Below are positions 7,627 through 59,914 of a stretch of 64,000 nt of DNA, in pieces. The DNA is from Acidobacteriota bacterium. Its GTDB lineage: Bacteria > Acidobacteriota > UBA890 > WLXD01. Each line of letters opens with the position of its first letter. Position 1 is the first letter of the stretch. The notes beneath the pieces were generated by a model. It searched no databases, was not told where the DNA came from, and saw only the letters and a list, made by a program, of their open reading frames with translations. The stretch lies in assembly GCA_963666215.2 (NCBI GenBank), contig CAXWPL010000004.1:640001-704000 (forward strand), written 5' to 3'. The position numbers were made by a program, and so were the translations under genes.

Positions 7627-10386
7627 ATGTCGAAATCCACTGGCGAGTACCGAACGCTCCCGCTGCTACCGCTGCGGGACGTGGTGATCTTCCCCGGCAT
7701 GATGATGCCGTTCGTCGTGGGACGGGAGCGCTCCGTCAAGGCGCTCGAGCGCGCGATGGAGAACGGCAAGAAGCTTTTCTTGTCGGCTCAGCGCGACGCC
7801 GAGGTCGAGGATCCAAATATCGAGCAGATCTTCACGCTCGGCACCATTTCGACGATCGTGCAGAGCCTGAAGCGTCCCGACGGCACGGTGAAGGTGCTCG
7901 TCGAGGGCTCGCGCCGAGCGCGCATTGTAGAGACCACCGATGAGAGCGGCTTCCTGGAGGTTGTGGTCCGCCCGGTGGAGCAATCGGAGGAGGGCGAGGC
8001 AGGCGATCTGTCAAACACCACCCGCAAGCTCGTCCGCCTGTTCGAGAAGTACGTCAAGCTGGCGTCGAACCTGCCCAACGAAGCCGTACTGGCCGCCGTC
8101 AAGAAAGACGACCCCGGTCGCCTCGGAGACACGATCGCCGCTCACCTGCCTCTGGGCGTACCCGCCAAGCAGGAGCTACTCGAGATCGTCGACGTAGCCG
8201 AGCGGCTCGAGAAGCTGATCATTTTGATCTCCGACGAGATGGACAAGGCGCGCGTCGATCGGAAGATTCAGGGCCAGGTCAAGAAGCAGATGGAGCAGGC
8301 CCAGCGCGAGTACTACCTCAACGAGAAGATCAAGGCGATCCAGAAGGAGCTTGGCCGAGGAGAGGGGCGTGAGTCGGAGATCGAACAACTCCGAACACGC
8401 ATCGCGGCGGCACGCATGCCGAAGCTCGTGCTCGAGAAGGCAGAGCAGGATCTCGACCGCCTCGAAGCCATGCCGCCGATGTCAGCCGAAGCCACGGTCT
8501 CGCGCAGCTACGTGGACTGGTTGGCCTCCGTGCCGTGGTTCCGGCGCAACCGTGAGAACCGCGACCTCGCGAGCGCTGCCGACATCCTGCGCGAAGACCA
8601 TCACGGGCTCGACGACATCAAGGAGCGGATCCTCGAGTTTCTGGCCGTGCGACAACTCGTCGACAGCCCGCGTGGATCGATCCTCTGTTTCGCGGGTGCG
8701 CCAGGCACCGGCAAGTCGTCGCTGGGTCGATCGATCGCCCGCGCGACGGAACGCGAGTTCGTGCGCTTGTCGCTTGGCGGCGTTCGTGACGAAGCCGAGA
8801 TTCGCGGCCATCGCCGCACCTACATCGGGGCATTCCCGGGCCAGATCATGCAGCGCATGAAGCACGCCGGTGTGGTTAACCCGGTGTTCCTGCTCGACGA
8901 AATCGACAAGATGAGCGCCGACTTCCGGGGCGACCCGTCGGCGGCGTTGATGGAGGTGCTCGATCCGGAACAGAACCATTCCTTCGTCGACCACTACCTC
9001 GACGCCGAGTACGACCTGTCGAACGTGATGTTCATCTGTACCGCGAACGTCCTGCACACCATTCCGGCGCCGCTGCAGGACCGCATGGAGATCATCCAGC
9101 TGTCCGGCTACACCCACGCCGAGAAGATGGAGATCGCGCGGCGACACCTGCTGCCCCGCCAGATCTCTTTTCACGGTTTGCGCCCCGAGAACCTCGAGGT
9201 GCAACCCGACGCTATCGATCGGCTGATCGAGGAGTACACGCGCGAGGCTGGTGTTCGCAGGCTCGAGCTCGAGCTCGCCAAGGTTTGCCGCAAGGCGGCG
9301 CATGGGCTGGTTCAGGAACACTACAAGGTCATCGCCGAGGCCGCCGAGGCCGAAGAGCGTCGGCGGTCGGAAGAGCTGATCGAAGCGGCCAGGTCTGCTC
9401 GGCAGCATGCCGAGAACGTGGCCGGCGACGGCGGCGAAGCCGACAGTGGCGCCGAGCCCGCGGCAGCCGGAGCCGACGATGGAGCCCGGGCAGACGCCGA
9501 GCTCAAAGTCGATGGTGCCAACGGCGCGTCAAGCCCGGCGACGGCGACCAGCGACGAAGCCGACGGTGCGGATACACCGAACGACGCCGAATTCGAGGAC
9601 ATCTTTGTTGAGGCGCGCGACCCCAACCATCACGCACTGCCACAGCGATCGGCGGCGGCCGAGGCACTTCCCGCTGACGCCAAGATCGTCGTCGATGCAG
9701 ATCTCCTCGAGCAGTACCTCGGCGTGCCGCGATACAAGCGACGGAAGAAAGAAAAGAAGGCCGAGGTGGGCGTTGCGCAGGGCCTTGCGTGGACCGAGCG
9801 CGGCGGCGAGACGCTGAACATCGAGACCACGCTGATGCCCGGCAAGGGCAAGCTCGCCCTCACCGGCAAGCTTGGCGAAGTGATGCAGGAGTCTGGCCAA
9901 GCGGCCCTATCGTACGTACGCTCGAACGCCGCCAAGCTCGGCATCCCGAAGGACTTCTACACCAGCGTCGATGTGCACGTGCACGTGCCGGAGGGAGCAA
10001 TCCCCAAGGACGGACCGTCGGCCGGAATCACCCTGGCAGCGACGATTGTCTCGGCGCTCACCGGAATCGCGATTCACGACGACCTCGCGATGACCGGCGA
10101 GATCACCCTGCGTGGCAACGTGTTGCCCATCGGCGGCGTCAAGGAGAAGGTACTGGCAGCGCACCGCATCGGACTCAAGACGGTGCTGCTGCCGAGCGAG
10201 AACGAGAAGGACCTGAGAGACATTCCCGAGGAGATCGCGTCGCAGCTCAAGATCCACCTCGTAGCAACCATGGACGAGGTGCTCCAGCACGCGCTCGTTG
10301 CTCCACTGAAACCTCTCTCCGGGCCGCAAGGGCCTATTCCGCCGGCTGGCTCCGGAGAAGCGATCGAGCGATCGATCACGCACTAG
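7627..10386 (+). CDS. lon: Lon protease (LonA) with ~120-aa acidic insertion
   Basis: LPLLPLRD N-domain, [23 protein letters not shown] (Ser) and IGGVKEK (Lys). Confidence 0.97.
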
Positions 10387-13286: not shown

Positions 13287-14380
<1,094 letters not shown>

Positions 14381-31277: not shown

Positions 31278-32602
31278 CAGGCTGCTGAAAAACGGCTCAC
31301 GAGTGTCGATCCGGTCCCCGAGCGGCAGCGTGGAGTAGGCATGGCGCGCACCGTTGAAGGGGGGCGATCGCAAACGACCCTTCGCTCGTCACCTCGAGAG
31401 GCGGTTTGGCGCTCCCGGGTCCCACTACCTTCACGTCAGCGCCTCGAGATTGCGCATTCTCACCAAGGTGAACGCTGCCGCGGTGAAGACGAACATCCAG
31501 CCGACGCGGTCGACCCCTCGGTGCTTCGTCTGGCGGATCAGTCCTACTGTCTTGCCCCAGCCAAAGACCTGCTCGACGAGCTTGCGTTTGACCTGGCTTT
31601 GCTTGTACCCGGCGTGCCTCGTGGTGCGGCCATCGATCGCGCTGCGTCTGTTGGTGTCGTTCTGCGCCACATACGGCGTTACGTTCCGATCTCTCAGCTT
31701 GCCGACGCACTCCTTGGTGTCGTAGTTCTTGTCGCCACCCATAGTCACGCGATCTGTCCCGGGGATCTCGCCGGCCATCGCCACTGCCGCATCTCGTTCC
31801 GCTGTGCCTGAAGCCTTCGTTACCATCGCGTTGGTCGGCAGCCCGTGGCGGTTGTCGACTACCAGGTGGCCCATGTAGCAGAGCTTCGCCTCGGATCCCT
31901 TGCTCTTCCTATACAGGCGGGCGTCAGGATCGGTTCTCGAGGCGTGTGTATCGCTCTTGCGCCGCTGTTTGCGGAAATCGACGTCCGGGTTCCGGCCGCC
32001 ACCACTGGGTGGATCCTGCCGCCCGCTCGGGTCTTTGGGCTGGTAGCTCTTGTGCGATGCCCACGCTTCGATCAGCGTTCCATCAACGGTGAAGTGCTCG
32101 TCCGATAGCAGTCCGCGCCTGCGCGCTTGCTCCACGACTTGCTCGAAGAACACTTCGGCGACCTCACCACCGAGCACCCGGTCTCGGTTCTTGGTGAACA
32201 CCGTCGCATCCCACACCGCATCGTCCATGTTCAAGCCCACGAACCAGCGGAATAGCAGGTTGTAGTCGAGCTGCTCCATCAGCATGCGCTCGGAGCGGAT
32301 CGTATACAGCACCTGCAGCAGCAATGCCCGCAACAGCTTCTCCGGCGGGATCGACGGCCGCCCCGTGTGCGAGTACATGCCGGCGAACAGTGGCGACATC
32401 TGTTCCAGCACGTTGTTGACGATCTTCAGCAGCCGCCGCAGCGGATGGTCCTTCGGTACCCTCTGCTCGGGCGAGATATAGCTGAACGCTGCCACTTGAC
32501 CCGCGTCTTCACCACGCATCTGCTCACCTCGTCGATGCTTCCGGTTGGCACGGGGCTGCATGGGTCAAGCTACATGAACGCTAGGAGTTTTTCAGCAGCC
32601 TG
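31278..32602 (-). mobile_element. IS5-family insertion sequence (1325 bp)
   Basis: Perfect 16-bp IRs CAGGCTGCTGAAAAAC (31278-31293 and 32587-32602); CTAG duplication at 31274-31277 and 32603-32606. Confidence 0.93.
31431..32519 (-). CDS. IS5-family DDE transposase
   Basis: GRPSIPPEKLLRALLLQ, FTVDGTLIEAWAS, GGDKNYD and RKLVEQVFGWGK. Confidence 0.92.
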   Translation of the reverse strand: MRGEDAGQVAAFSYISPEQRVPKDHPLRRLLKIVNNVLEQMSPLFAGMYSHTGRPSIPPEKLLRALLLQVLYTIRSERMLMEQLDYNLLFRWFVGLNMDDAVWDATVFTKNRDRVLGGEVAEVFFEQVVEQARRRGLLSDEHFTVDGTLIEAWASHKSYQPKDPSGRQDPPSGGGRNPDVDFRKQRRKSDTHASRTDPDARLYRKSKGSEAKLCYMGHLVVDNRHGLPTNAMVTKASGTAERDAAVAMAGEIPGTDRVTMGGDKNYDTKECVGKLRDRNVTPYVAQNDTNRRSAIDGRTTRHAGYKQSQVKRKLVEQVFGWGKTVGLIRQTKHRGVDRVGWMFVFTAAAFTLVRMRNLEALT

Positions 32603-47791: not shown

Positions 47792-50086
47792 ATGGGCAGC
47801 TCACTCGTAATTGTCGAGTCTCCGGCCAAGGCCCGCACGATCAACCGCTACCTCGGCAAGGGGTACACGGTAAAGGCCTCGATGGGCCACGTGCGCGACC
47901 TCCCCAAGAAGGAGCTCGCAGTGGACGTCGACAACGATTTCGCGCCCACGTACCAGCTTATCGACGACAAGAAGAAGGTCGTCCAGGAGCTGCGCCGCAT
48001 CGCGGCCAAGTCCGACGCGATCTACATCGCAACGGATCCCGATCGCGAGGGCGAGGCCATCGGCTGGCACCTGGTGCAGCTTCTTGAAGAGAAGAAGGCG
48101 CCCAAGCAAGTCTATCGAGTGCTCCTCGAAGAGATCACCAAGCCCGGAATCGAGCGCGCTTTCGCGAACCGTCAAGAGCTCGATCTCGACAAGGTCAACG
48201 CGCAGCAAGCACGACGCATTCTCGACCGGCTCGTGGGCTACAAGCTGTCGCCGCTGCTGTGGGACAAGGTTCGCCGTGGCATCTCGGCCGGGCGTGTGCA
48301 GTCGGTGGCCCTGCGCCTGGTGGTCGACCGCGAGCGCGAGATCGAAGCGTTCGTAACCGAGGAGTACTGGTCGATTACCGCGAGCCTCGAGAGCGATTCC
48401 CCACCGCCCTTCGACGCTAAGCTGCACCGCAAGTCGGGCGACGAGGTCAAGATTGGCGACGAAGACGCCGCCCAAGCGATCCTCGGCGAGCTCCAGGGCG
48501 CGGCATGGGGCGTGGCCAAAATCGACTCCAAAAAGCGCCGCCGGCGCCCCAAGCCGCCGTTCACCACACCGCAGCTGCAGCAGGCCGCCTATCGGCGCAT
48601 CGGATCGTCGGTACGCCGCACAATGATGCTGGCGCAGCAGCTGTACGAGGGCATCGACATCGGCGACGAAGCTCCTGTGGGTCTCATCACCTACATGCGC
48701 ACCGACTCCACCCGAGTGGCCGATGTCGCTATCTCCGAGGCACGAGAGGTGATCGGCAAGCGCTTTGGCGCCGAGTCTGTACCCAACAAGCCTCGCGTAT
48801 TCAAGGCGGGCAAGGCCGCGCAAGAGGCACACGAGGCCATCCGGCCGACATCAGCGGCGCGCACGCCGCAGGCGATGAAGAAGTACCTCGACAAAGACCA
48901 GTACCGCATGTACGAGCTCATCTGGCAGCGCTTCGTGGCTTCCCAGATGGCCGATGCGCTTTACGACACGACCGCGGTAGATATCGCCGCCGGCGACTAC
49001 ACCTTCCGCGCCTCGGGATCGATCTTGCGATTCGCCGGCTTCCTGGCGGCCTACGCCGATCTCGAAAAGAAACCCGACGACGACAGCGAAGCCGCGAGCG
49101 AAACCGACCGCCTGCTGCCACCGCTCAGCGAGGGCGATGCGCTGAAGCTGCTCGACATCGCTCCGAAGCAGCACTTCACGCAGCCACCGCCGCGCTTCAG
49201 CGAGGCAATACTCGTCCGCGAGCTCGAGCGTAACGGCATCGGTCGTCCGTCAACCTACGCCGACATCCTCAGCAAGCTGCGCAACCGGGCCTACGCGAAC
49301 GTCGAGGACAAGCGCTTCCACCCGAGCGAGCTCGGCACCACGGTGACCGACCTGCTGGTGCAGAACTTCGGCCGCATCCTCGATATCAACTACACGGCCA
49401 GGGTCGAGGAACGCCTCGACGACATCGAGGCCGGCAAGGAGGGATGGGTCACCGCGCTCGACCGTTTCTGGGACCGCTTCACGAAGGAGCTGAAGACGGC
49501 CGAGAAAGAGATGCGCAACGTCAAGCGCGAGGAGACCCCCACCGAAGAGGTTTGCGACAAGTGCGGCAAGCCCATGGTCATCAAGTTCGGACGCTTCGGA
49601 CGCTTCATCGCCTGTACCGGCTACCCCGAGTGCAAGAACACCAAGAAGATCGCCAAGGGCGCCGACGGCGAAGACAAGATCGAGGACAAGCCCGCCCCTG
49701 AGCCCACCGGCGAAAAGTGTCCGAAGTGCGAAACCGGACAGTTGGTCCGCCGCACCGGCCGCTTCGGCCCCTTCGTAGGTTGTGGTGACTTCCCGAAGTG
49801 TCGCTACATCAAGCCGAAGACGATCGGGATCAAGTGCCCCAAGTGCAGCAATGGCGATCTGTCGGAGAAGCGTACGAAGAAGCGACGCACCTTCTTCGGC
49901 TGCACCGAGTATCCCGACTGCGACTTCGCCACCTGGCGACGCCCAGTGCCGATCGCCTGCCCGACGTGCAAGCACCCGTTCTTGGAAATCAAGAAGGCCA
50001 AGGACTTGCCCGACGAGCTCGTGTGCCCGCAGGAAGATTGCGAGTACGCCACCGAGGCGGCGGAAACGATCGGCGTACCGGAATAG
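47792..50086 (+). CDS. topA: DNA topoisomerase I with C-terminal Zn ribbons
   Basis: LVIVESPAK, ATDPDREGE, SAGRVQS and ITYMRTDS; repeated CxxC. Confidence 0.98.
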   Translation: MGSSLVIVESPAKARTINRYLGKGYTVKASMGHVRDLPKKELAVDVDNDFAPTYQLIDDKKKVVQELRRIAAKSDAIYIATDPDREGEAIGWHLVQLLEEKKAPKQVYRVLLEEITKPGIERAFANRQELDLDKVNAQQARRILDRLVGYKLSPLLWDKVRRGISAGRVQSVALRLVVDREREIEAFVTEEYWSITASLESDSPPPFDAKLHRKSGDEVKIGDEDAAQAILGELQGAAWGVAKIDSKKRRRRPKPPFTTPQLQQAAYRRIGSSVRRTMMLAQQLYEGIDIGDEAPVGLITYMRTDSTRVADVAISEAREVIGKRFGAESVPNKPRVFKAGKAAQEAHEAIRPTSAARTPQAMKKYLDKDQYRMYELIWQRFVASQMADALYDTTAVDIAAGDYTFRASGSILRFAGFLAAYADLEKKPDDDSEAASETDRLLPPLSEGDALKLLDIAPKQHFTQPPPRFSEAILVRELERNGIGRPSTYADILSKLRNRAYANVEDKRFHPSELGTTVTDLLVQNFGRILDINYTARVEERLDDIEAGKEGWVTALDRFWDRFTKELKTAEKEMRNVKREETPTEEVCDKCGKPMVIKFGRFGRFIACTGYPECKNTKKIAKGADGEDKIEDKPAPEPTGEKCPKCETGQLVRRTGRFGPFVGCGDFPKCRYIKPKTIGIKCPKCSNGDLSEKRTKKRRTFFGCTEYPDCDFATWRRPVPIACPTCKHPFLEIKKAKDLPDELVCPQEDCEYATEAAETIGVPE

Positions 50087-50237
50087 CCGAGGGCGGCTCG
50101 CCCCGGCGGCCCGGGCCCATTCGACGCGGGCCCGCATCAGCCGCCTCACTGCGCGACCTTGGCGCCTCGATCGCCATCATCGCGGGCGCAGCCGCTTAGA
50201 CTAGGCGTCGACCCGACGCCGGCCTCTTTTCGGGACT

Positions 50238-51488
50238 TTGCCGTTGCCAATCGCCAGTCAAGTTGTGGACGCGCTGCAGCCTGAGGATCACCTGCTGATT
50301 GCGTGTTGCGCTGCCGCTCTGCGCTCGGGGTCTGCAGGCTCTGCGGAAGCACCTGGCGTTGAAGTCGAGCCACCGGTCTCGAAGGCGTTCACCTGGGCGG
50401 CGTTCGTCGCCCGCGCCAACTGGCACGGCGTGCACGGGACGATCCTTCCTGTCGTCGCGAGCCAGCTGCGTTCCACGATGCCCGAAAACGTCTGGGAGTC
50501 GATGCGGGAGCTCGCCCAGCGGCAGGCGCCAAAAAACCTGCGTCTGTCTCGAGCACAGGCTGAGCTGATCGAGGCGTTCGAGCGTGCCCGAGTTCCGTTC
50601 GTCGTGCTGAAGGGGTTACCGCTGGCGCAGCATCTCTATGGAACCGTTACGGCTCGACGTTGCCGCGACATCGACCTCCTGGTCGCGCCGGAGGCATTCT
50701 GGGAGGGGCGTGCCGTTCTGGAGAGCCTCGGCTACGCGTCGACGCGCGGCCTCACACGCGCGCAGGATCGAGTTTGGTTGCGTTACGCGTCCGATCTACC
50801 GATGCAGCGCTCCGACGACGTCCTCGTAGAGCTCCACCATGGATTCGAGATACGCCCAGCACGAGCTGCGCACGCCTGCGCTGCCGGGCTCCTGGCGGCG
50901 GCGCGGCCGTTTGATCTCGACGGCGTAAACGTGCCGGCGGCGCTGGGTGTGGAGCTCATTCCCTATCTGGCGTGGCACGGTACCAAACACGCGTGGTTTC
51001 GGCTGTTCTGGCTGCTTGATATCGCGGCCGTCGAACTGCGGGCAGGAGTCGCTAACCGCGACGCCATCTGGGAGGCCGCCGCGTCGATCGGCCAGCAGCG
51101 CTCGCTGGCTCTCGCGTGGTGGCTGTCGGCAGCGCTCTTCGGCGTGCCGCAAACCGCCACCCGCATCGGCCCGGCGGAGGCCGGCCGCGTTGCCGCTCTC
51201 GGAGGACGCGTGCTGCGAGACGCGTTCGGTCCCGTGAAACCGCTGCAGGCGCACACGCTGGCGCGACGCAGCCGAGCGCTCAGCTGACAGTGGCAGGTGG
51301 CGTCGGGGCCGGGCCAAAGAGCGGCTGTGGTGCGCGACTATCTGATCGCGGTGCAGCCGGACGACATTCAAGCCATACCGCTACCGCGATCGCTGTACTG
51401 GTTGTACCCGGTGCTGCGCCCATTTCGGGTGGTCGCGAGGTTCGTCAAGGCTCTCTTGACTCGACTGATGCGTGTCTCCTGGAGCTAG
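50238..51488 (+). pseudogene. nucleotidyltransferase (NTP_transf_5-like, lasso-cluster type) with in-frame TGA at 51285-51287
   Basis: LKG..LA..LYG...R..RDIDLLV and VELH. The same frame continues past the TGA to the typical tail P.D....LP..LY.LY...RP.R. Confidence 0.75.
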
Positions 51489-51491
51489 TCG

Positions 51492-52796
51492 GTGCCGCGA
51501 GTGCTGTTTGTCAGTTATGTCTTCCCACCGATGGCCGCGGGAGGTGCGATCCGTACCGGACAGCTCGCACGCTACCTGCCCGAGCACGGCTGGGACGTGA
51601 CCGTGCTCACGGCAACCTGTTCGCCGGCGGCGGCGATCGATATGAAGGCGCTCGCGGCCCTCCCGAAGTCGATCCACGTGGAACGAGCCTGGGCACCCAA
51701 CCAGCGGCTTGGCTCGATGCGCGCCAGTGCGCAGCTGCGGCACGGAGTGCGCGGCTTCCTCCGCCGCTCCGCCATTGGCGCCGCCAAGCTGCTCGTGGTA
51801 CCCGATCGGCAGGTCAGCTGGTATCCGTCCGCGGTGCGCACGGGTCGTCGGCTGCTCGACGAAACACCTCACGACGTGGTGCTGGCGAGCTACGGCCCGG
51901 GCACGAGCCTTCTGGTTGGCAGACGACTTGCCGAGGCGGCGGAACTGCCGTTGGTACTCGACTTTCGCGATCTGTGGAGCGACCTGCCGCTCGATGTGTT
52001 CGCCACGGGTTGGCATCGAGCGCGGGCAGCGAGGATGGAGCGTCGTTGCGTTGCCGCGGCTCGCCGAATCGTTTGCGTGTCCGATCGCATGGCGGCTCAT
52101 CTGGCCGAGCGCCACGGCCGGTCGACGAGCGAAGTGGTAGCGATTCCGAACGGGTTCGATCCAGCGCAGGTGGGACGCCACGCGGACGCTGGTCCCCGCC
52201 ACGCCGACCCCTGCGCGCCCGCAGGCAGGCCGAGGCCGTTCCGGCTCGTGTACGCCGGCGCCGTGCATCGATTCCAGGCGGTAGATCCTTTCCTCGCGGC
52301 ACTGCGCGGCGCGATCGACGGTGGCGAGATCGAGCGGGCGGCGGTCGAAGTGGAGTTCGTTGGCAACCTCGACCCGGACGTGTCGCGGCGCAGCGGCCTC
52401 CAGGACATCGTGCGCTGCCGACCCTTTGTGCCCCATGCCGATGTGCCGGCAGTGCTAGCGCGAGCCGACGCCCTGCTTCTACTCGAGCAGCCGGGCTATT
52501 GGGGCGAGTTTTCCTACTCCGCGAAGGTCTTCGACTACGTGATCACCGGCAAGCCGGTTCTCGCTCTGGTCGAGGACCCCGGCAACAGTGCAAACCTGCT
52601 ACGCGAGCTGGGCACCGGGATCATGGTGGCGCCGCTGGACGAGGCGGCAATCCGCCGCGCTCTCGTCGCGCTCGTGACCGGCCCGCCGACGCCAGCTCGG
52701 AACGTCGATACCAGCGTCGATCCGCTGAACCGCTTCGACCGACGCACCCTCGCTGGCCAGTTGAGCGACGTGCTGCAAGACGCTTTGGGCGACTAG
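51492..52796 (+). CDS. GT4-family glycosyltransferase
   Basis: SYVFPP...GG.IR, LDFRDLW, IPNGFD and SAKVFDY. Confidence 0.88.
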   Translation: MPRVLFVSYVFPPMAAGGAIRTGQLARYLPEHGWDVTVLTATCSPAAAIDMKALAALPKSIHVERAWAPNQRLGSMRASAQLRHGVRGFLRRSAIGAAKLLVVPDRQVSWYPSAVRTGRRLLDETPHDVVLASYGPGTSLLVGRRLAEAAELPLVLDFRDLWSDLPLDVFATGWHRARAARMERRCVAAARRIVCVSDRMAAHLAERHGRSTSEVVAIPNGFDPAQVGRHADAGPRHADPCAPAGRPRPFRLVYAGAVHRFQAVDPFLAALRGAIDGGEIERAAVEVEFVGNLDPDVSRRSGLQDIVRCRPFVPHADVPAVLARADALLLLEQPGYWGEFSYSAKVFDYVITGKPVLALVEDPGNSANLLRELGTGIMVAPLDEAAIRRALVALVTGPPTPARNVDTSVDPLNRFDRRTLAGQLSDVLQDALGD

Positions 52797-53920
52797 CTGC
52801 GCGAATGCGTCCGAATCATTTGGCGCACGAAGTTCTCAACGCGCTGCTCGGTGGCAAAGAGATCGGGAAACTGTTGCCTGATCTGCTCCGCGATTGCGGC
52901 GACCGTCCGTGTTCCGTCCAGCGCTGAGATCACCGCCGAAACGGCGCGAGCACGTTCGGTGGCCTTCGGGCTGGCTTCGTCCCGTGAATTCGCAATCGCC
53001 GTGCTGAGCGGCTTCCCGAACATTGTCGAACCCTGTCGCATCTCGTCGCCACACCGCAGCCGCCAGACCCAGTCACCATAGGGCGGTCGCAGCAAGCGAA
53101 ACTCGATCGTGTCGCCCTCTTTCACCGCAACAGCAGGATCCACGGGAACGAAGGAAGCCGACCAATGCACCGCCGGATCGAACGGCCCGGTAGATAGCCA
53201 CTCATCGCCGAGCTTCATGCGCAGCCAGGCCGCAATCCCGTCGCACATGCCGGCTTCCACGACCCTGAGCTCGGCGGTGACGTCGAGCTTCCTGTACGCC
53301 ATCGTTTCGAGGTCGGTGGTAAACAACTCGGTTGTTTCCCCGAGTGGCTCCGCACCGCGCAGCCCGGCGTCGCGGAAGACGATGGCGTTGGTGGCGTACC
53401 GGCGGGCCGGACTGAGGTCGAGCCCGAGGTGCGGCTCGGCCCAGCAATCCAGATGGCGCCGGATCATCTTCGGCGAGGCGACTGGCATCACATCGATCGC
53501 GGCGGTCGACGGAATCAGCACACCACCCTCGCGTAGATGTTCGTCGCGCGCATGGAAAACTGTCGGCAACAAGTCTTCGTTGAAGAGCACGTTGCCGGTC
53601 ATCGCGGAGACGATGACGTCGACCTTCTCGGGAAGCTCGAGCTCTTCGATTCGGCCGTGCAGAAAGGTCACCTGGTCGGCCCAGCCGTTGGCCTCGGCGA
53701 TCTCTGTGGACAGGGCGCCGAGATCCTGCGGCTCTACGCAGTACACGTGTCGCGCCCCGTGCTTGGCGGCCAGAAGGCCCAGAATACCCACCCCGGCGCC
53801 GAGATCGAGAACCACCGACTCGGGAGTGACGTGCTTGGCGAGCGCGCGCTCATATGCGGCGTTGCGCACGCCGTCGAGCGCCATCGAGCGCTGTCCTTGC
53901 AAGTTCAAATCGGGCGTCAT
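52793..53920 (-). CDS. class I SAM methyltransferase, PRMT-like, with C-terminal PqqD/RRE-like helices
   Basis: D.VRN.AY, VLDLGAGVG, VYCVE, EKVDVIVS, ARD..L..GG.LIP and VHW; tail LDGTRTVAAIAEQI...FV..M; native start uncertain. Confidence 0.8.
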   Translation of the reverse strand: MTPDLNLQGQRSMALDGVRNAAYERALAKHVTPESVVLDLGAGVGILGLLAAKHGARHVYCVEPQDLGALSTEIAEANGWADQVTFLHGRIEELELPEKVDVIVSAMTGNVLFNEDLLPTVFHARDEHLREGGVLIPSTAAIDVMPVASPKMIRRHLDCWAEPHLGLDLSPARRYATNAIVFRDAGLRGAEPLGETTELFTTDLETMAYRKLDVTAELRVVEAGMCDGIAAWLRMKLGDEWLSTGPFDPAVHWSASFVPVDPAVAVKEGDTIEFRLLRPPYGDWVWRLRCGDEMRQGSTMFGKPLSTAIANSRDEASPKATERARAVSAVISALDGTRTVAAIAEQIRQQFPDLFATEQRVENFVRQMIRTHSRS

Positions 53921-54764
53921 CTATCAGGCGAGCCCCGAGCAGTTCCTTCTGAGGCTGCAAGGCGTCGCCAGCTATCTGGTGGACGGCGGCGACGCGATCA
54001 CGATTGAACGCGATCCGCAGGCCGACGATTCCAGCGTACGGGTGTTCCTTCTGGGCTCCTGCCTGGCGGCCGTACTGCACCATCGCCAGATGCTGGCGCT
54101 GCATGCGAGCGCCATTCACACGGCCGGTGGCGCCGTGCTCTTCATGGGCCCTTCGGGCAACGGCAAGAGCACGCTGCTCAACGAGTTCCTCAGGCGTGGC
54201 TACTCCATGCTCTCGGACGATATCGTGGCCATCGTTCTCAACGAGGCTGGCGAGCCCGTCGCTCTGCCCGGCTACCCGCAAACCAATCTGTGGGCCGATG
54301 CGGCCAGGCACTTCGAGCTCGACACGAAGTCGCTGCACCAGGTGCGCCCCAGCATGCAGAAGTTCGCTGTGCGGACGCACGAACAGTTCGTTACAGAAGC
54401 CGTGCCCCTGCGCGCACTGTACGGGTTGTCCTCGACCAACCGCGACGTGCTCGACGTCCGCTCAGCGGAGAACACGGCGGCTTTCGGCTTGGTGCCCAAC
54501 TCCACGTACCGACGCACGTTCCTGCGGGGGCTCGGCATGCAGGCGATCCACTTCGCGCTGGCAACGAAGGTTGCCTCCACCGTACCCGTAAAACGAATGC
54601 GTCGCCCCAATGCCGGTTTCACGGTCGCCCGCGTAGCCGACATCATCGAGCTCGACCTCGCCGGCGAGTACACGGAGCCGGAGGAAGGCGAGGAAACGTC
54701 GGTTGCCGATTTCGTTGCCGCGCGGGCAGCCGCTGCCAGCGCCGGCAAGGCGAAGAAGGGTTAG
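53901..54764 (+). CDS. HPr-kinase-like lasso peptide kinase (5' end apparently missing)
   Basis: FLLGS, LHASAI, GPSGNGKST (Walker A) and LSDD; no plausible start or RBS upstream of GVIYQA. Confidence 0.8.
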   Translation, partial: KFKSGVIYQASPEQFLLRLQGVASYLVDGGDAITIERDPQADDSSVRVFLLGSCLAAVLHHRQMLALHASAIHTAGGAVLFMGPSGNGKSTLLNEFLRRGYSMLSDDIVAIVLNEAGEPVALPGYPQTNLWADAARHFELDTKSLHQVRPSMQKFAVRTHEQFVTEAVPLRALYGLSSTNRDVLDVRSAENTAAFGLVPNSTYRRTFLRGLGMQAIHFALATKVASTVPVKRMRRPNAGFTVARVADIIELDLAGEYTEPEEGEETSVADFVAARAAAASAGKAKKG

Positions 54765-54766
54765 CC

Positions 54767-55660
54767 GTGGCAGGCATCGTCTGGCTGGCGTCGTATCCGA
54801 AGTCGGGCAACACCTGGATGCGGGCGCTTCTGGCCAACTATCTCCGCGACGCAGCCGAACCCGTGAAGATCAACGCGCTTGGCGGGAGTCCTATCGCGTC
54901 GGCGCGACAGGCGTTCGACGACAACGTCGGCGTCGAGGCTTCCGACCTGCTGCCCGACGAAATCGACCGCTACCGCCCGTTCGTTTACGAGCAAATGGCG
55001 GCCGAGAATGCAGCCCGAGACCAGCCGATCTTTCTGAAAGTGCACGATGCGTTCACCTACAACGCCGACGGTCACCCGCTGTTGTCGAAGAAGGCAACCC
55101 AAGGGGTCCTGTACCTCACGCGCAACCCGCTCGATGTAGCGGTGTCGTTCGCACATCACTCCGCGTTTGACGTGGAGACCTCCGTGAAGCGAATGGGCGA
55201 TCCCGACTTCGGCTTCGTCTCGAGCAAGAAGAGGCTCTTCAACCAGCTCGAGCAGAAGCTGCTCACCTGGAGCGGCCACGTGGGGAGCTGGCTCGACGAA
55301 CCCGGCATTGACGTCCACGTGGTGCGCTACGAGGACATGAAAGCCGACACCGTCGGCACGTTCGGCGGCGCTGTGCGCTTCTCCGGGTTGGAGTTCGACG
55401 AGGCTCGGGTCGCCAAGGCCGTCGACCACGCCAGCATCGCCCGCCTGCAGGAGCAAGAGCGGGAAGGCGGCTTCGGCGAGAAGCCCTTCGGCATGCCCGC
55501 GTTCTTCCGCCGCGGGAAGGTGGGCGATTGGCGCGACGAGCTCTCCGAGGAGCTCGTGGCAAGAGTAGTCGCCGACCACAGCACTGTGATGAGACGTCTT
55601 GGCTACCTGAACGAGGCCGGCGAGGTTACCATCGGGCCAGCGGCCCAACAGATTAACTGA
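54767..55660 (+). CDS. PAPS-dependent sulfotransferase
   Basis: 5'-PSB SYPKSGNTW, 3'-PB RNPLDVAVS and C-terminal RRGKVGDW. Confidence 0.92.
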   Translation: MAGIVWLASYPKSGNTWMRALLANYLRDAAEPVKINALGGSPIASARQAFDDNVGVEASDLLPDEIDRYRPFVYEQMAAENAARDQPIFLKVHDAFTYNADGHPLLSKKATQGVLYLTRNPLDVAVSFAHHSAFDVETSVKRMGDPDFGFVSSKKRLFNQLEQKLLTWSGHVGSWLDEPGIDVHVVRYEDMKADTVGTFGGAVRFSGLEFDEARVAKAVDHASIARLQEQEREGGFGEKPFGMPAFFRRGKVGDWRDELSEELVARVVADHSTVMRRLGYLNEAGEVTIGPAAQQIN

Positions 55661-55677
55661 CCGATCGCGACAGGCGA

Positions 55678-55983
55678 ATGAGACAAAAGATCGAGCTAGA
55701 GCTCACAAGCGTCCTGCAGCGCAACAACGAGCTCATGACCGCCGAGATGGGCGACGAGCTGGTGATGCTGCATCTGGATCAGGGCAGCTACTTTGGCCTC
55801 GACGATATTGGCAAGGAAATCTGGCTGCAGCTCAAAGAGCCTGGCTCGTTTGCCGACCTTTGCGCTCAACTACAGGCCGAATTCGATATCGACCCAGCAA
55901 CGTGCGAGGCTGACGTTCGTAAGTTCCTGACTCGCCTTGCCCGTAACAACTTGGTGACGATCGATGGGGAAGCTGTGGCATAG
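55678..55983 (+). CDS. PqqD/RRE protein (lasso B1)
   Basis: ELVMLH...YFGLDDIG..IW..L and EFDID...C..DV..FL..L. Confidence 0.92.
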   Translation: MRQKIELELTSVLQRNNELMTAEMGDELVMLHLDQGSYFGLDDIGKEIWLQLKEPGSFADLCAQLQAEFDIDPATCEADVRKFLTRLARNNLVTIDGEAVA

Positions 55984-56440
55984 GCTGCTGCGCTTCTCGC
56001 GCCGCCCCCTAAGAAACAAGTTGTTGCTACTCGAGGCGGTGACCCTGCTCGCTGTGTCGCGCCTGCTGGTACTGACGGTCCCGTTCAAGTGGATCGGCGG
56101 CCGCCTGGGCGTTGTCTACGCCGAGAGCATCGAGGAGGTCGGGCCCGAAGCCACGCGACAAGCACACGAGATTGCCTGGGCAGTGAATGCGGCGGCAAAC
56201 CACACCTACTGGACGAGCAACTGCCTGCCCCGCGCCATGACCGCGCACCACATGCTTTCGCGCCGCGGTCTGCCCACCACCGTCTACCCCGGCGCGGCCA
56301 AAGACGACACCAAGGGCATGATCGCGCACGCCTGGCTACGCTGCGGCAAACACATCCTCACGGGCGGCCCCGGTCATCGCCGCTACACCGTGGTCGCGAC
56401 CTTCGCGACGTTCGCTGACGTCACCTCGTCGACCGACTAG
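55964..56440 (+). CDS. lasso peptide leader peptidase B2 (transglutaminase-like)
   Basis: NCLPRA (Cys), L..RG and AHAWL (His). Confidence 0.9.
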   Translation: MGKLWHRLLRFSRRPLRNKLLLLEAVTLLAVSRLLVLTVPFKWIGGRLGVVYAESIEEVGPEATRQAHEIAWAVNAAANHTYWTSNCLPRAMTAHHMLSRRGLPTTVYPGAAKDDTKGMIAHAWLRCGKHILTGGPGHRRYTVVATFATFADVTSSTD

Positions 56441-56479
56441 TCGCCCAGCCGCTTCCGACGACCTTCCAATGAGTGTCTG

Positions 56480-58378
56480 ATGAGCGCCATCTGCGGCTTG
56501 CTGCGGCTCGACGGGGAGCCTACCGACCCCGCACGACTGAAGGCCGCAATGCGGGTAATGGCGCGCTACGGGCCCGACGGTTCGGGCACCTGGAGTGAAG
56601 GTGCCGTGGCGCTCGGTCACCAGATGCACCGGCTTGTCCCGGAGTCGGCAACAGAGGTGCAACCGCACACGCTGCCCGAGCCGGGTTTGACGATTACAGC
56701 CGCTGCGCGAATCGACAATCGCGAAGAGCTCGCGGAGGCTTTCGGAATCGATGCGGCCATGGCTGCCGAGTGGCCCGACGCGCGCTACATCCTGTCCGCC
56801 TACGAGCGCTGGGGAATTGACTGCGTTCCGCGGCTACTCGGCGACTTCGCCTTCGCTCTATGGGATGGCCGCCAGCGTCGATTGTTGCTGGCTCGCGACT
56901 TCGCGGGCATCAGACCGCTGTACTACGCCGCCGACGACAAGCGCGTGAGCTTCGCATCGGACGTCCACGGAGCGCTGGAGGTCGCGGCGCTTCCGCCCCA
57001 TCTCGATTTGCGCGCCCTGCGCGAGCAACTCGGCTACGGCTCGCTGCACGACAACGTGCGGACGTTCTTCGAAGGCCTGCACAAGTTGCCTCCGGGGCAC
57101 TGGCTGGTGGCGGACGCGTCGGGCGTCAAGACACGCCGCTATTGGCGGCCGAGCGACGTGCCCCGAGTGCGAGTTACTAGCGATCGCGACGCCGTAGAGC
57201 ACATTCTCGATCTGGTGAACAAGGCAGTGCGCTCCTGCACCCGCTGTTCTCGACCTGTTGGCGCGCACGCCAGCGGCGGGCTCGACTCGTCGACGCTGGC
57301 GGTGCTCAGCGCGCGCATCTTGGGTGAGTCCGGACGTTCGCTCACCGCGATCAACTGGGCGCCACCCTTCGGCGAAGATGATCTGCCGCTCACCGACGAG
57401 CGCGCGCTGGTCGAGGCCATCGCCGCCGCCGAGGGAAACATCGACCCCTGCTACACACCGCTCACGGCCGACGATCTGGCCAACGACCGGTGCTCCGACA
57501 TCACGCTGCACCCGCACTCCACCTTGCGCTGGGAAAGTCGCGCCTGCCCCGAGGCCGCAGCGCGCGGCGTGCGCGTGGTGCTTTCGGGCTGGGGTGGCGA
57601 CGAGACCATCGCGTTCAACGGCCGGGGGTTCTTCTCTGACCTCGCCCGTCGGGGCCGCTGGATCCGACTCGCACGCGAGCTGCGTGAACGCTCGCGCCTT
57701 CACCCGGTGGAGTACTGGGGTCTTCGCGGCAAGGTTCTCATTCCGCTGATGCCCGACTGGGCGGTCGCGCGCTGGACGCCGCGCCGCGGTGCTCGCCTCA
57801 AGCCTCTACCGAGCTGTCTTTCGCCCGAGCTCACCGAGCTGATACGCGACATTGAACCGCCCACCAAGACCGGTCGAGAGAGGCCCGGTCGACGACGGAT
57901 GCAAGAGACGCTGCTCAACAACGGCCATCTCAACGGGCGCTGCGAGTCGTGGAATGACTACGGTGCCAACCACGGCATCGAGTACCGCTTCCCGGTGCTC
58001 GATCGCCGCGTGGTCGAGTTCGCCCTTGGCGCGCCGGACTGGTTGTTCTTCAAGAACGGATGGAAGCGCTACGCCTTCCGCAAAGCCATGGAGGGACTCG
58101 TGCCGGCCGACGCACAGTGGCGCAAACGCAAGAACGACCCGGCCATGATCAAGCACACGGGCCCGCTGATGGAGCCCGCGGAGGTGATCCATCGTCAGCG
58201 TCTCGAGGCCCGAGAAAGCGCCATCCGTGCCGCCGGCCTGCTCAACTACGACGCCCTCGTCAAGGACTTGGACGCCGACGAGGTCGAGGCGGAAGATCGC
58301 CAAGCCGGGGCGCCGCCACGACGCGCCGGGACGCAACAAGCCGCCTGGCTCGCATTCGCCACCGGGACGCTGCCGTAG
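56480..58378 (+). CDS. lasso peptide cyclase (asparagine-synthetase-like)
   Basis: N-terminus MSAICG lacks the Ntn Cys nucleophile; SGGLDSS, SGWGGDE and P.LDRRVVEF; adjacent to B1 and B2. Confidence 0.9.
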   Translation: MSAICGLLRLDGEPTDPARLKAAMRVMARYGPDGSGTWSEGAVALGHQMHRLVPESATEVQPHTLPEPGLTITAAARIDNREELAEAFGIDAAMAAEWPDARYILSAYERWGIDCVPRLLGDFAFALWDGRQRRLLLARDFAGIRPLYYAADDKRVSFASDVHGALEVAALPPHLDLRALREQLGYGSLHDNVRTFFEGLHKLPPGHWLVADASGVKTRRYWRPSDVPRVRVTSDRDAVEHILDLVNKAVRSCTRCSRPVGAHASGGLDSSTLAVLSARILGESGRSLTAINWAPPFGEDDLPLTDERALVEAIAAAEGNIDPCYTPLTADDLANDRCSDITLHPHSTLRWESRACPEAAARGVRVVLSGWGGDETIAFNGRGFFSDLARRGRWIRLARELRERSRLHPVEYWGLRGKVLIPLMPDWAVARWTPRRGARLKPLPSCLSPELTELIRDIEPPTKTGRERPGRRRMQETLLNNGHLNGRCESWNDYGANHGIEYRFPVLDRRVVEFALGAPDWLFFKNGWKRYAFRKAMEGLVPADAQWRKRKNDPAMIKHTGPLMEPAEVIHRQRLEARESAIRAAGLLNYDALVKDLDADEVEAEDRQAGAPPRRAGTQQAAWLAFATGTLP

Positions 58379-58486
58379 TGTCGCCAGGGCCGGCCTGGTG
58401 GGGCTAGTGACTCGGGCATCGGAAGTTGCCAGCCCGGCGAGCGGCAAGCTCGACTCTCTATCTCACGCCTCAGACGTTGCGGAACC

Positions 58487-59914
58487 ATGACAGACACTCC
58501 GATCGTCACCATCGTTGGTGGCGGCATGGCCGGCTCCGAGGCCACCTGGCAGCTCGCCAAGCGCGGCATCCGTGTGCGGCTCTACGAGATGCGACCCGTG
58601 GTCGGCACGCCGGTGCATCAGAGCAGCGATCTGGCCGAGATGGTGTGCAGCAACTCGCTGCGATCCGACGGAATCGACAACGCCATCGGGCTGCTCCACG
58701 AGGAGATGCGGCGCCTCGATTCGCTCTTTCTGACAACAGCCGACGCCAACCGAGTGCCGGCCGGAAAGGCGCTGGCCGTTGATCGGGCGCGGTTCGCCCG
58801 TGCAATCACCTCCGCGATCGAAGCGCTGCCGAACGTTGAGGTGGTCCGCGAAGAGGTCGCCGCGATCCCCGAGGGGCCGTGCATCTTGGCTACCGGTCCG
58901 CTGACGTCGGAATCGCTGGGAGAATCGATCCGCGAGTTCACCGGCTCCGACGATCTCTATTTCTACGACGCGATCTCGCCCATTGTGCGCGCCGAAAGCA
59001 TTGACGAGTCGCGAGTCTTCAGGGCCAGCCGCTACGGCAAGGGGGGCGACGACTACCTCAACTGCCCGATGTCGCGCGAGGAGTACGACCGTTTCTACGA
59101 GGCGATGATGGCGGCCGAGCTGCTCGAGCTGCCCGACTTCGAGCGCGGCCTGTTTTTCGAGGGCTGCCTGCCGATCGAGGAGATCGGCAGTCGTGGGCCC
59201 CAGACGCTGACCTTTGGACCCATGAAACCCGTGGGTCTCATCGACCCGCGCACCGGCAAGCGCCCCTACGCGGTCGTGCAGTTGCGCCAGGACGACATCG
59301 CCGCCGAGCACTACTCGCTGGTCGGCTTCCAGACGCGCATGAAGTGGGGTGATCAGGAACGCGTGCTGCGCCTGATCCCCGGCCTCGAGCAGGCCGAGTT
59401 CGTGCGCCTGGGCGTCGTACACCGAAATACCTACATCAACGCTCCGCGTGTGCTGTCGGAAACGCTGCAGTCGCGAGCGCGTAGCGACCTCTTTTTTGCC
59501 GGGCAGATCGCCGGCACCGAAGGTTACGTGGAGTCGGCCGCCGGAGGCCTGCTGGCGGGGATTTACTGCGGCATGATGCTGCTGGATCGAGAGATTACGC
59601 CTGTGCCGCGCCTGACCGCTCTGGGCTCTCTCGCCTTCTATATCAGCCACGCACGCGCTATCGATTATCAGCCAGCCAACATAACCTTTGGAATCATGCC
59701 GGAATTGGAGCCCTCGATCGTGCAAGCTTCAAGGGAGATGCGCGGTCGACGGGGTCGCAAGGCTCGACGTGAAGCCATCTCGCTGCGCGCCCTCGACGCG
59801 CTCAGCGAGTGGATCGATGAGGCCGGTCCGCGACTCGGATTGCAACAGCCTGAGGCAAGAGAGCCCGCGCCAAGCATGTCGAGCGGCGCGGACACGGTGC
59901 GAGGTAGCCAATGA
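58487..59914 (+). CDS. trmFO: folate/FAD-dependent tRNA m5U54 methyltransferase
   Basis: GGGMAGSEA, AEMVCSNS, FFEGCLP, VGFQT and AGQIAGTEGY. Confidence 0.96.
   Translation: MTDTPIVTIVGGGMAGSEATWQLAKRGIRVRLYEMRPVVGTPVHQSSDLAEMVCSNSLRSDGIDNAIGLLHEEMRRLDSLFLTTADANRVPAGKALAVDRARFARAITSAIEALPNVEVVREEVAAIPEGPCILATGPLTSESLGESIREFTGSDDLYFYDAISPIVRAESIDESRVFRASRYGKGGDDYLNCPMSREEYDRFYEAMMAAELLELPDFERGLFFEGCLPIEEIGSRGPQTLTFGPMKPVGLIDPRTGKRPYAVVQLRQDDIAAEHYSLVGFQTRMKWGDQERVLRLIPGLEQAEFVRLGVVHRNTYINAPRVLSETLQSRARSDLFFAGQIAGTEGYVESAAGGLLAGIYCGMMLLDREITPVPRLTALGSLAFYISHARAIDYQPANITFGIMPELEPSIVQASREMRGRRGRKARREAISLRALDALSEWIDEAGPRLGLQQPEAREPAPSMSSGADTVRGSQ

Follow-up and report, generated by a model that had tools for sequence, protein, structure and literature searches.

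Gene content of the locus

We analyzed a stretch of 64,000 nucleotides from an Acidobacteriota bacterium (GenBank assembly GCA_963666215.2, contig CAXWPL010000004.1, positions 640,001 to 704,000 of the forward strand), hereafter named the window, in which a methyltransferase gene lies on the reverse strand at 52793..53920 within a biosynthetic cluster for lasso peptides. Antibiotics and stable peptide scaffolds have often been mined from lasso peptides. The gene starts with ATG and encodes 375 amino acids followed by a stop codon. Pfam, profile, model and fold comparisons identify its predicted product as an S-adenosylmethionine (SAM)-dependent methyltransferase with the fold of type I protein arginine methyltransferases (PRMTs). 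We propose, with a probability of about 0.7, that it belongs to a large bacterial family of PRMT-fold enzymes that is accessory to lasso clusters, has a methyl acceptor other than arginine and uses a C-terminal tail for docking.

All parts of the protein are given here with their reverse-strand coordinates. A Rossmann SAM-binding domain covers residues 1-138 (53507..53920; translation, Pfam, alignment and model). An altered double-E loop occupies residues 105-116 (S-A-M-T-G-N-...-E-D; 53573..53608; translation and alignment). The PRMT beta-barrel extends over residues 139-300 (53021..53506), as delimited by the Pfam PRMT_C match to residues 139-276, the model and the VIA-align range of 1-300. 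The tail, residues 301-375, consists of a linker and three helices (52796..53020; Pfam, NCBIfam, models and fold comparisons).

The other genes of the cluster lie on the forward strand, and the cluster is flanked by topA and trmFO. An NTP_transf_5 nucleotidyltransferase (50238..51287; Pfam), of a family that the accessible part of PMC8498205 places in phospho- and glyco-lasso clusters, precedes a family-4 glycosyltransferase (GT4; 51492..52796; Pfam). On the other side of the methyltransferase gene are a 5'-truncated HprK-related peptide kinase (53907..54764; Pfam, NCBIfam, tblastn and blastn) and a sulfotransferase (Sulfotransfer_1; 54761..55660, start approximate; Pfam). The lasso genes proper follow, assigned by Pfam and NCBIfam: B1, a discrete PqqD-type recognition element (RRE) of peptides that are made on ribosomes and modified after translation (RiPPs) (55678..55983), the leader peptidase B2 (Transglut_core3; 55964..56440) and the asparagine synthase-like lasso cyclase C (56480..58378). 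No precursor candidate was found in the cluster gaps by six-frame reading, or in the whole window by leader-motif patterns.

A PRMT fold with an altered arginine pocket

The series of PRMT motifs that an initial annotation of this DNA had listed was recovered in full, and in PRMT order, from the translation of 52793-53920. It comprises motif I (VLDLGAGVG), post-I (VYCVE), motif II (EKVDVIVS) and motif III (LREGGVLIP), together with a D.VRN.AY stretch, SAMTGNVLFNE, ARDEHLREGGVLIP and VHW; the tail starts with LDGTRTVAAIAEQIRQQFP. Rossmann motifs I, post-I, II and III align to those of PRMT6, as is characteristic of the SAM domain of type I PRMTs, and D39, G43, G45, R125, G133 and P137 are invariant in an alignment of 93 family members, as are the SAM-binding residues.

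In Pfam, PRMT_C, the barrel/oligomerisation subdomain, matched residues 139-276 at 37.4 bits (cut-off 27), while residues 37-133 matched Methyltransf_25 at 36.7 bits. The profile of the 93 sequences matched PRMT6, PRMT8, PRMT2, CARM1, PRMT3 and PRMT1 over residues 2-276, with E values from 3e-67 to 1e-60, so the resemblance is well outside what chance would produce. An AlphaFold2 model computed from the 93-row alignment reached a mean predicted local distance difference test score (pLDDT) of 95.6 and a predicted template modelling score of 0.90. The top Foldseek matches of this model in the PDB were PRMTs only, with PRMT2, CARM1 and PRMT6 at E values of ~2e-27. Among 48,161 representative chains, VIA-align gave Z scores of 32.5 for PRMT3 and PRMT2 and 32.4 for CARM1 over model residues 1-300, with 293-298 residues aligned at root mean square deviations (rmsd) of 2.0-2.5 Å; the best non-PRMT folds, which are PrmA-like, scored 12.6. 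The combination of a Rossmann domain with a PRMT beta-barrel, for which the initial annotation had suggested a fold check, is thus borne out by profile, model and both structural searches.

The likeness to PRMT1, 2, 3, 6, 8 and CARM1 extends over the full catalytic core, namely the four Rossmann motifs and the beta-barrel, at 24-31% identity, and includes the HW of the THW loop and the second Glu of the double-E loop. The latter residue, E115, is kept in 90 of the 93 family members and is followed by Asp116 in 82; H252 is present in 89 and W253 in 90, while the position of the Thr is taken by V, T, L or M. In contrast, PRMTs hold the guanidinium group with two invariant Glu residues, and the first of these aligns to Ala106 in comparison with PRMT6, as the initial annotation had noted. 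Among the 93 family members, this position is Val in 70, Ala in 19, Asp in 3 and Glu in 1 (V/A in 89). The neighbouring Met and Tyr of PRMT6 are replaced by near-invariant Thr (position 108, 87/93) and Asn (position 110, 88/93). Judged from the alignment, the pocket is conserved across the family, yet it is not the arginine pocket of PRMTs. The protein further differs from PRMTs in its extra helical tail of 75 residues and in belonging to a bacterial family found in lasso clusters whose predicted cores mostly contain no Arg. It presumably starts close to where helix alpha-Y of PRMT1 starts, without alpha-X, and helices 150-189 of the model occupy what we take to be the site of the PRMT dimerisation arm.

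The ribosomal protein L11 methyltransferase PrmA, a bacterial protein N-methyltransferase, is a weaker match. Its Pfam and NCBIfam models matched the Rossmann part weakly (31.6 bits, far below the family cut-offs), and its VIA-align Z scores were 12.4-12.6. Unlike the PRMT matches, these are limited to the Rossmann domain (120 residues), and PrmA has no PRMT barrel.

A large bacterial family associated with lasso clusters

A word-indexed search, in which 8,000 candidates were scored, returned 321 relatives at E<=0.001, most of them of ~373 amino acids with 95-99% query coverage. Among 1.84 billion representatives, a profile of the tail alone had 1,741 matches at E<=0.001, of which 922 reached E<=1e-10; the family thus comprises at least 922 sequence clusters (50% identity). 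The description of the enzyme as "eukaryote-style" is misleading because the family is large and bacterial.

Among the best 150 tail matches, the tail ends at most 12 residues from the C-terminus in 145. Forty-three of these 150 proteins have at least 340 amino acids, and the PRMT part is present in 42 of them. The lengths of the remaining 107, all shorter, are distributed evenly between 76 and 303 amino acids, which is what genes cut by contig ends would give. Neither a free-standing tail nor another fusion partner was found among the 150, with the exception of P0117, in which a lasso B2 (Transglut_core3) domain is joined to the methyltransferase.

We then surveyed the genomic environment of the family in one genome per species, which gave 80 loci, and analyzed the 53 with a match at E<=1e-20. 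Neighbours were sought within 6 kb by tblastn with the B1, B2, C and kinase proteins of the window. The match reaches the tail in 26 of the 53 loci, and 23 of these contain B1, B2, C or the kinase. Two others (L014 and L040) carry a Pfam PqqD gene directly upstream of the methyltransferase gene, which brings the tail-bearing loci with lasso, RRE or kinase genes to 25 of 26; the remaining one (L048) is a 2-kb contig. Where the match stops short of the tail (27 loci), lasso or kinase neighbours were found in 13. Five of the remaining loci of this group (L022, L031, L038, L049 and L050) were examined with Pfam; all five lack RiPP genes and seem to encode other bacterial PRMT-like proteins.

According to their record titles, the loci belong to Acidobacteriota, Cyanobacteria, Chloroflexota, Gamma- and Betaproteobacteria, Rokuibacteriota, Planctomycetota, Myxococcota and Actinomycetota. 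The gene is therefore located with B1, B2 and C across distant taxa, as a lasso tailoring gene should be, and the possibility raised in the initial annotation that homologs lie mostly outside RiPP clusters did not materialize. Of the 26 tail-bearing loci, 16 have an HprK match at a distance of up to 6 kb, and the kinase gene adjoins the methyltransferase gene in L018, L023, L024, L026, L027, L032 and L033. In four Acidobacteriota loci (L004-L007), the methyltransferase gene lies between B1 and C and no kinase match was found. From this genomic context, the family very likely is an accessory (tailoring) enzyme of lasso-peptide clusters.

Predicted lasso cores and the methyl acceptor

In many loci, leader-motif patterns detected small open reading frames (ORFs) that adjoin the methyltransferase gene and encode a lasso leader. 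In 9 loci, 25-62 nt separate the end of the candidate precursor from the start of the methyltransferase gene behind it. We collected 25 precursor candidates from 24 loci, and each core was taken to begin 17 residues beyond the leader motif's aromatic residue. From L014, a locus that shows no lasso cyclase or peptidase, two leader-like ORFs were excluded, and loci without a pattern match are absent from the set. The residue counts are approximate because candidates were chosen by leader-motif pattern and cores by a fixed offset.

Arg occurs in 8 of the 25 predicted cores and Lys in 17. Met is found in 23 and Cys in 14, so that 24 cores contain one or the other, and Met makes up 8.8% of all predicted-core residues. 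The cores beside relatives that carry an acidic residue at position 106 (the P0118-P0121 type, for example L023) are also free of Arg. With Arg in so few cores, arginine would not be the common acceptor of the family, and the non-arginine acceptor suggested by the initial annotation is the better reading. The acceptor is likely to be something other than an arginine guanidino group. We infer that the sulfur of Met or Cys, which apart from Ser is the only kind of side chain that nearly every predicted core contains, is the more likely acceptor and that another N or O nucleophile is possible.

The candidate precursors of L004-L007 (~13420-13630) have Val at leader position -2, instead of the usual Thr. 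In three of the four, no acidic residue is found at core positions 7-9 as counted from the usual cleavage site. The cleavage site or the ring size of these peptides may be unusual.

The C-terminal tail

The initial annotation had also compared the tail to the helical part of PqqD/RRE domains and had proposed that the enzyme is guided by the leader peptide. In the AlphaFold2 model, the linker is followed by helices 322-333, 340-350 and 358-372, and there are no strands past residue 298. The same three helices appear when residues 296-375 are modelled separately from an alignment of 29 tails of the loci (pLDDT 81.8). The Pfam PqqD model (PF05402) matched the tail with 18.5 bits (E 0.0026), under its gathering cut-off of 23.4, and the NCBIfam PqqD models matched with E values of 5e-5 and 1e-4, at 22-23 bits against cut-offs of 46 and 101. 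Alignment by hhalign of the cut-out tail with 25 lasso B1 proteins of the same loci gave E values of 0.04-0.07 in a sensible helix-to-helix register; with the whole-length methyltransferase, only a spurious N-terminal match was obtained.

Structural searches gave a similar picture. Foldseek returned no match to the tail at E<=0.001; PqqD (3g2b, 5sxy) and lasso B1 (5v1u, 6jx3) structures ranked 3, 4, 5-7 and 11 of 45, with E values of 1.2 for 3g2b, 3.3 for 5v1u and 5.4 for 6jx3. VIA-align placed PqqD 3g2b first (Z 7.0, rmsd 8.8 Å), and the lasso B1 proteins 6jx3 and TbiB1 (5v1u) scored Z 5.5 and 5.3, all of these values being under the tool's caution level for helical bundles, which may match by common arrangement. 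The three tail helices can be superposed on helices 1-3 of these PqqD and B1 domains, over positions 21-62 of the 67 in the Pfam profile and over 47-59 residues in structure, and the genomic setting is common to both. Unlike these domains, however, the tail has no three-stranded sheet, and hence no leader-binding groove between strand 3 and helix 3.

An RRE combines a three-stranded antiparallel sheet with three helices, and the sheet is absent from both predicted models. By its defining features, the modelled tail is thus not an RRE; it is probably the degenerate helical half of a PqqD-like domain. What stands of the RRE-like description is a weak PqqD likeness and the three helices, whereas the beta-sheet is absent and all comparisons are sub-threshold. 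Leader binding by the tail is unsupported because the sheet that forms the groove is missing, and we infer, at most, leader guidance of the enzyme.

A rearranged cluster in the window

Among sister genomes, the two closest relatives of the window methyltransferase are those of G007 (66% identity) and G001 (58% identity). Their clusters share the order NTP_transf_5, GT4, ATP-binding cassette (ABC) exporter, kinase, sulfotransferase, B1, B2, C, YcaO cyclodehydratase, ThcOx-type oxidase and methyltransferase. In G007, a precursor-like ORF with a GGAG-type ribosome site directly follows C; in G001, no precursor candidate was found in the 34.5 kb examined. In the window, the methyltransferase gene is inverted and lies between the GT4 and kinase genes, and the precursor, ABC exporter, YcaO and oxidase genes of the relatives are absent from the cluster. 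In the genome of the window, 91.7% complete, neither YcaO nor the oxidase has a homologue at E<=1e-5, and the ABC homologues share at most 35% identity. This rearranged setting had gone unmentioned in the initial annotation: the N-terminus is replaced, the kinase is truncated at its 5' end and a precursor gene beside the methyltransferase gene is lacking.

A rearrangement junction was located at 53905..53906 by blastn and tblastn. The homology of the methyltransferase gene to its relatives stops at 53905, which corresponds to their codon 5 (blastn), and kinase homology begins at 53906/53913, at codon 50-55 of the relatives (blastn; residue 48-56 by tblastn). Since homology switches at this point, the first five methyltransferase codons (53906-53920) are the antisense of kinase DNA, which supplies the in-frame ATG. 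The N-terminal Tyr of 74 of 78 relatives is Asp in this copy. The kinase gene has lost ~47 N-terminal codons of its closest relatives; the region upstream of it is the antisense of the methyltransferase 5' end, and its only possible starts are the TTG codons at 53835 and 53862, inside this antisense. A second junction lies at 52793..52796, where the convergent GT4 and methyltransferase genes overlap by their stop codons (CTAG) without a spacer and no terminator-like hairpin was found. We considered a simple inversion with end points at kinase codon ~47 and methyltransferase codon ~6. It would explain the junction at 53905/53906 but leaves the left junction and the loss of genes unaccounted for, which calls for more than one event.

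Both junctions were searched for in public sequencing runs. At least half of the words sampled from 52300-54400 occur in 16 runs of nine studies, with no RNA run listed among them. In four of the runs, each of a different study, a contig bridges both junctions: X1 (49500-56465) without any difference, X3 (50200-59000) with 3 differences, X8, a possible source of the window, over the whole stretch with 3 differences, and X10 (49850-56012) with 11 differences and a 41-nt skip at 54632-54672. A misassembly is unlikely because contigs of four runs, one of which may be the source of the window, bridge the junctions. The skip in X10 lies in the kinase gene and is out of frame. At the sites across 50530-56289, the coding differences of X10 in the cluster are 10 non-synonymous and 1 synonymous, and include Asp101Ala at a near-invariant methyltransferase residue. 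They hint at relaxed constraint on the cluster, with errors possible at a contig depth of 3.3.

Related sequences were seen elsewhere in the genome (G000). A second fragment of an HprK-related kinase gene, 5'-only and with an intact N-terminus, is found at G000:C1:559213-559660; it is 64-67% identical to the relatives of the cluster and runs into an ankyrin-repeat frame after ~140 codons. At G000:C4:464148-464324 (L094:8149-8325), a 58-amino acid ORF has a lasso-type leader like that of the G007 precursor and a predicted core of 21 residues. This orphan is the only precursor-like ORF found in the genome, at ~229 kb from the cluster, and it adjoins a Mutator-family (IS256-like) transposase gene (L094:8395-9657).

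In the two closest relatives, a YcaO protein (715 amino acids) and a ThcOx/nitroreductase-type oxidase are encoded between the cyclase and methyltransferase genes, at L091:5651-7798 and 8541-9893 and at L092:6497-8644 and ~8640-9950. The presence of these two genes suggests that the lasso peptides of the relatives bear azol(in)e rings.

Proposed role and alternative explanations

According to the role that we propose, the enzyme would methylate a nucleophile other than arginine, more probably the sulfur of Met or Cys, either in the linear precursor or in the lasso peptide. The tail would dock it on the leader peptide or on the B1/kinase complex, so that either the tail or the discrete B1 would bring enzyme and peptide together. 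A precedent is the lasso kinase BsfK, for which the accessible part of PMC10368454 describes that a discrete B1 brings kinase and peptide together and that Ser3 of the core, not the C-terminal Ser, is phosphorylated. Several points weigh against this proposal. The part of the family in methylation is a prediction, and no methylated product is known. The core counts are approximations, Ser occurs as widely as Met or Cys (in 24 of 25 cores), and Met is absent from two cores. The E115-D116 pair might still bind guanidinium, and two Arg are present in the predicted core of the orphan ORF, this genome's sole precursor candidate. The tail lacks the sheet of an RRE and does not reach the thresholds for PqqD or B1 in Pfam, hhalign, Foldseek or VIA-align. 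For the window copy in particular, the lost N-terminal Tyr, the lack of intergenic space on both sides of the gene and a promoter and terminator scan of 52400-54600 that found neither have to be added.

Different acceptors can be weighed on this evidence. A true peptidyl-arginine N-methyltransferase that acts on the Arg of lasso cores, like a canonical PRMT, would account for the fact that all closest solved relatives are arginine methyltransferases, for the conserved second Glu and HW, and for the two Arg of the orphan core; the Asp that follows the second Glu in 82 of 93 members could even stand in for the lost one. We nevertheless regard this as very improbable, given V or A in place of the first Glu in 89 of 93 members and 17 Arg-free cores out of 25, including those beside relatives with an acidic position 106. 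It is hardly more than conceivable that the enzyme acts off the peptide, either on a cellular target for self-protection or on the sugar, phosphate or sulfate added by neighbouring transferases. The frequent proximity of the kinase gene and the sulfo-, glycosyl- and nucleotidyltransferase genes of the window would fit such a role, but L004-L007 have no kinase match, the PRMT fold is a protein- or peptide-modifying scaffold in all solved relatives, and a fusion of B2 with the methyltransferase exists (P0117). A narrower form of our proposal, in which the family S-methylates Met (to a sulfonium) or Cys in Met/Cys-rich core tails by means of a re-purposed PRMT site and a half-RRE tail, appears rather unlikely as a whole. 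Complex prediction of the methyltransferase with the 58-amino acid orphan candidate gave a score of 0.00, the predictor having returned no answer.

Two further alternatives, each of which we consider unlikely though deserving of serious attention, concern the tail and the window copy. The tail could be neither derived from an RRE nor RRE-like in action, but a family-specific helical extension serving for example in oligomerisation or in docking to the kinase or B1, with the substrate recruited by the discrete B1. This would agree with the missing sheet and the sub-threshold PqqD matches, with three-helix bundles being common folds, with the discrete B1/PqqD gene present in most methyltransferase loci, and with the bsf lasso system, in which a discrete B1 strongly speeds phosphorylation by the kinase (accessible part of PMC10368454). 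On the other hand, PqqD and lasso B1 are the best or near-best matches in three independent kinds of search, namely Pfam/NCBIfam, Foldseek (ranks 3-7 and 11 of 45) and VIA-align (rank 1). The window copy, for its part, may be a relic of a broken cluster, as unused as the truncated kinase, which would leave the proposal for the family unaffected. The junction in codon 5/6 with loss of the conserved Tyr, the ~47 codons missing from the kinase and its second fragment on another contig all speak for this, as do the lack of a precursor candidate in the cluster gaps, the distance of the only precursor-like ORF, beside its transposase, the absence of YcaO and oxidase homologues, the divergent ABC homologues and the out-of-frame skip and non-synonymous excess in X10. 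Yet all eight ORFs of the cluster are open and, except for the kinase 5' end, of full length; the retention of the whole methyltransferase frame together with the gain of an in-frame ATG has the look of selection; runs of four studies show a near-identical arrangement; the X10 differences may be errors; and precursors can be encoded in trans.

Relation to known lasso methylation

Our proposed enzyme combines two known kinds, the PRMT enzymes and the tailoring methyltransferases of RiPPs. In the accessible parts of PMC8498205 and PMC13352647 (June 2026), lasso methylation is described at the C-terminal carboxyl group (lassomycin, StspM) and at Asp, leading to aspartimide (LihM and the cellulonodin-2 enzyme), and StspM acts on the linear precursor. 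Like the window enzyme, the lassomycin-type/StspM, LihM and cellulonodin-2 enzymes are SAM-dependent accessory enzymes of lasso clusters, but they belong to other families, StspM-type enzymes being O-methyltransferases and the LihM and cellulonodin-2 enzymes resembling protein isoaspartyl methyltransferases. All characterised lasso methyltransferases in those parts of the two sources form carboxyl methyl esters, and none is described with a PRMT barrel. Full-text literature searches retrieved no PRMT-type lasso enzyme, and no characterised member of the family of at least 922 clusters is in print within their reach, although the RODEO lasso co-occurrence tables may mention the family. The accessible part of the RRE-Finder preprint reports 1,050 methyltransferases that were set aside in exploratory mode as presumed false positives, and members of the window family may be among them.

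If the proposal is correct, this would be the first PRMT-type enzyme in RiPP biosynthesis, probably with a new acceptor, and each new lasso tailoring enzyme offers chemistry that is transferable to other peptides. The family shows a way of rebuilding the arginine pocket of PRMTs and is thereby relevant to how PRMTs evolve and may be engineered. S-methylation of Met or Cys, if true, would be a methylation undescribed for lasso peptides or any RiPP, and a eukaryote-type arginine methyltransferase scaffold would have been rebuilt in bacteria as a peptide sulfur methylase. The YcaO protein and azoline oxidase of the relatives hint at lasso-azole hybrids. For first biochemistry, intact clusters of the G007/G001 type are better suited than the rearranged window copy; the window cluster is a natural experiment caught in rearrangement, useful for learning which parts are dispensable.

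Small ORFs of the window

A 63-amino acid ORF at 51297-51488 on the forward strand was considered as a precursor, as it ends in Ser, and was rejected: it has no lasso leader or core features and is conserved beside the nucleotidyltransferase gene in a relative (G001, 57% identity, E 3e-17). It is in the NTP_transf_5 frame, one stop codon past the end of that gene, and Pfam returned no match to it. Either a small conserved gene or a C-terminus that is split off or reached by read-through may be present here. Another ORF, of 50 codons at 31726-31878 on the forward strand, has the same translation in at least 6 other places of the genome, on contigs C4 and C5. It probably belongs to an insertion sequence present in multiple copies, as would suit a rearrangement-prone genome.

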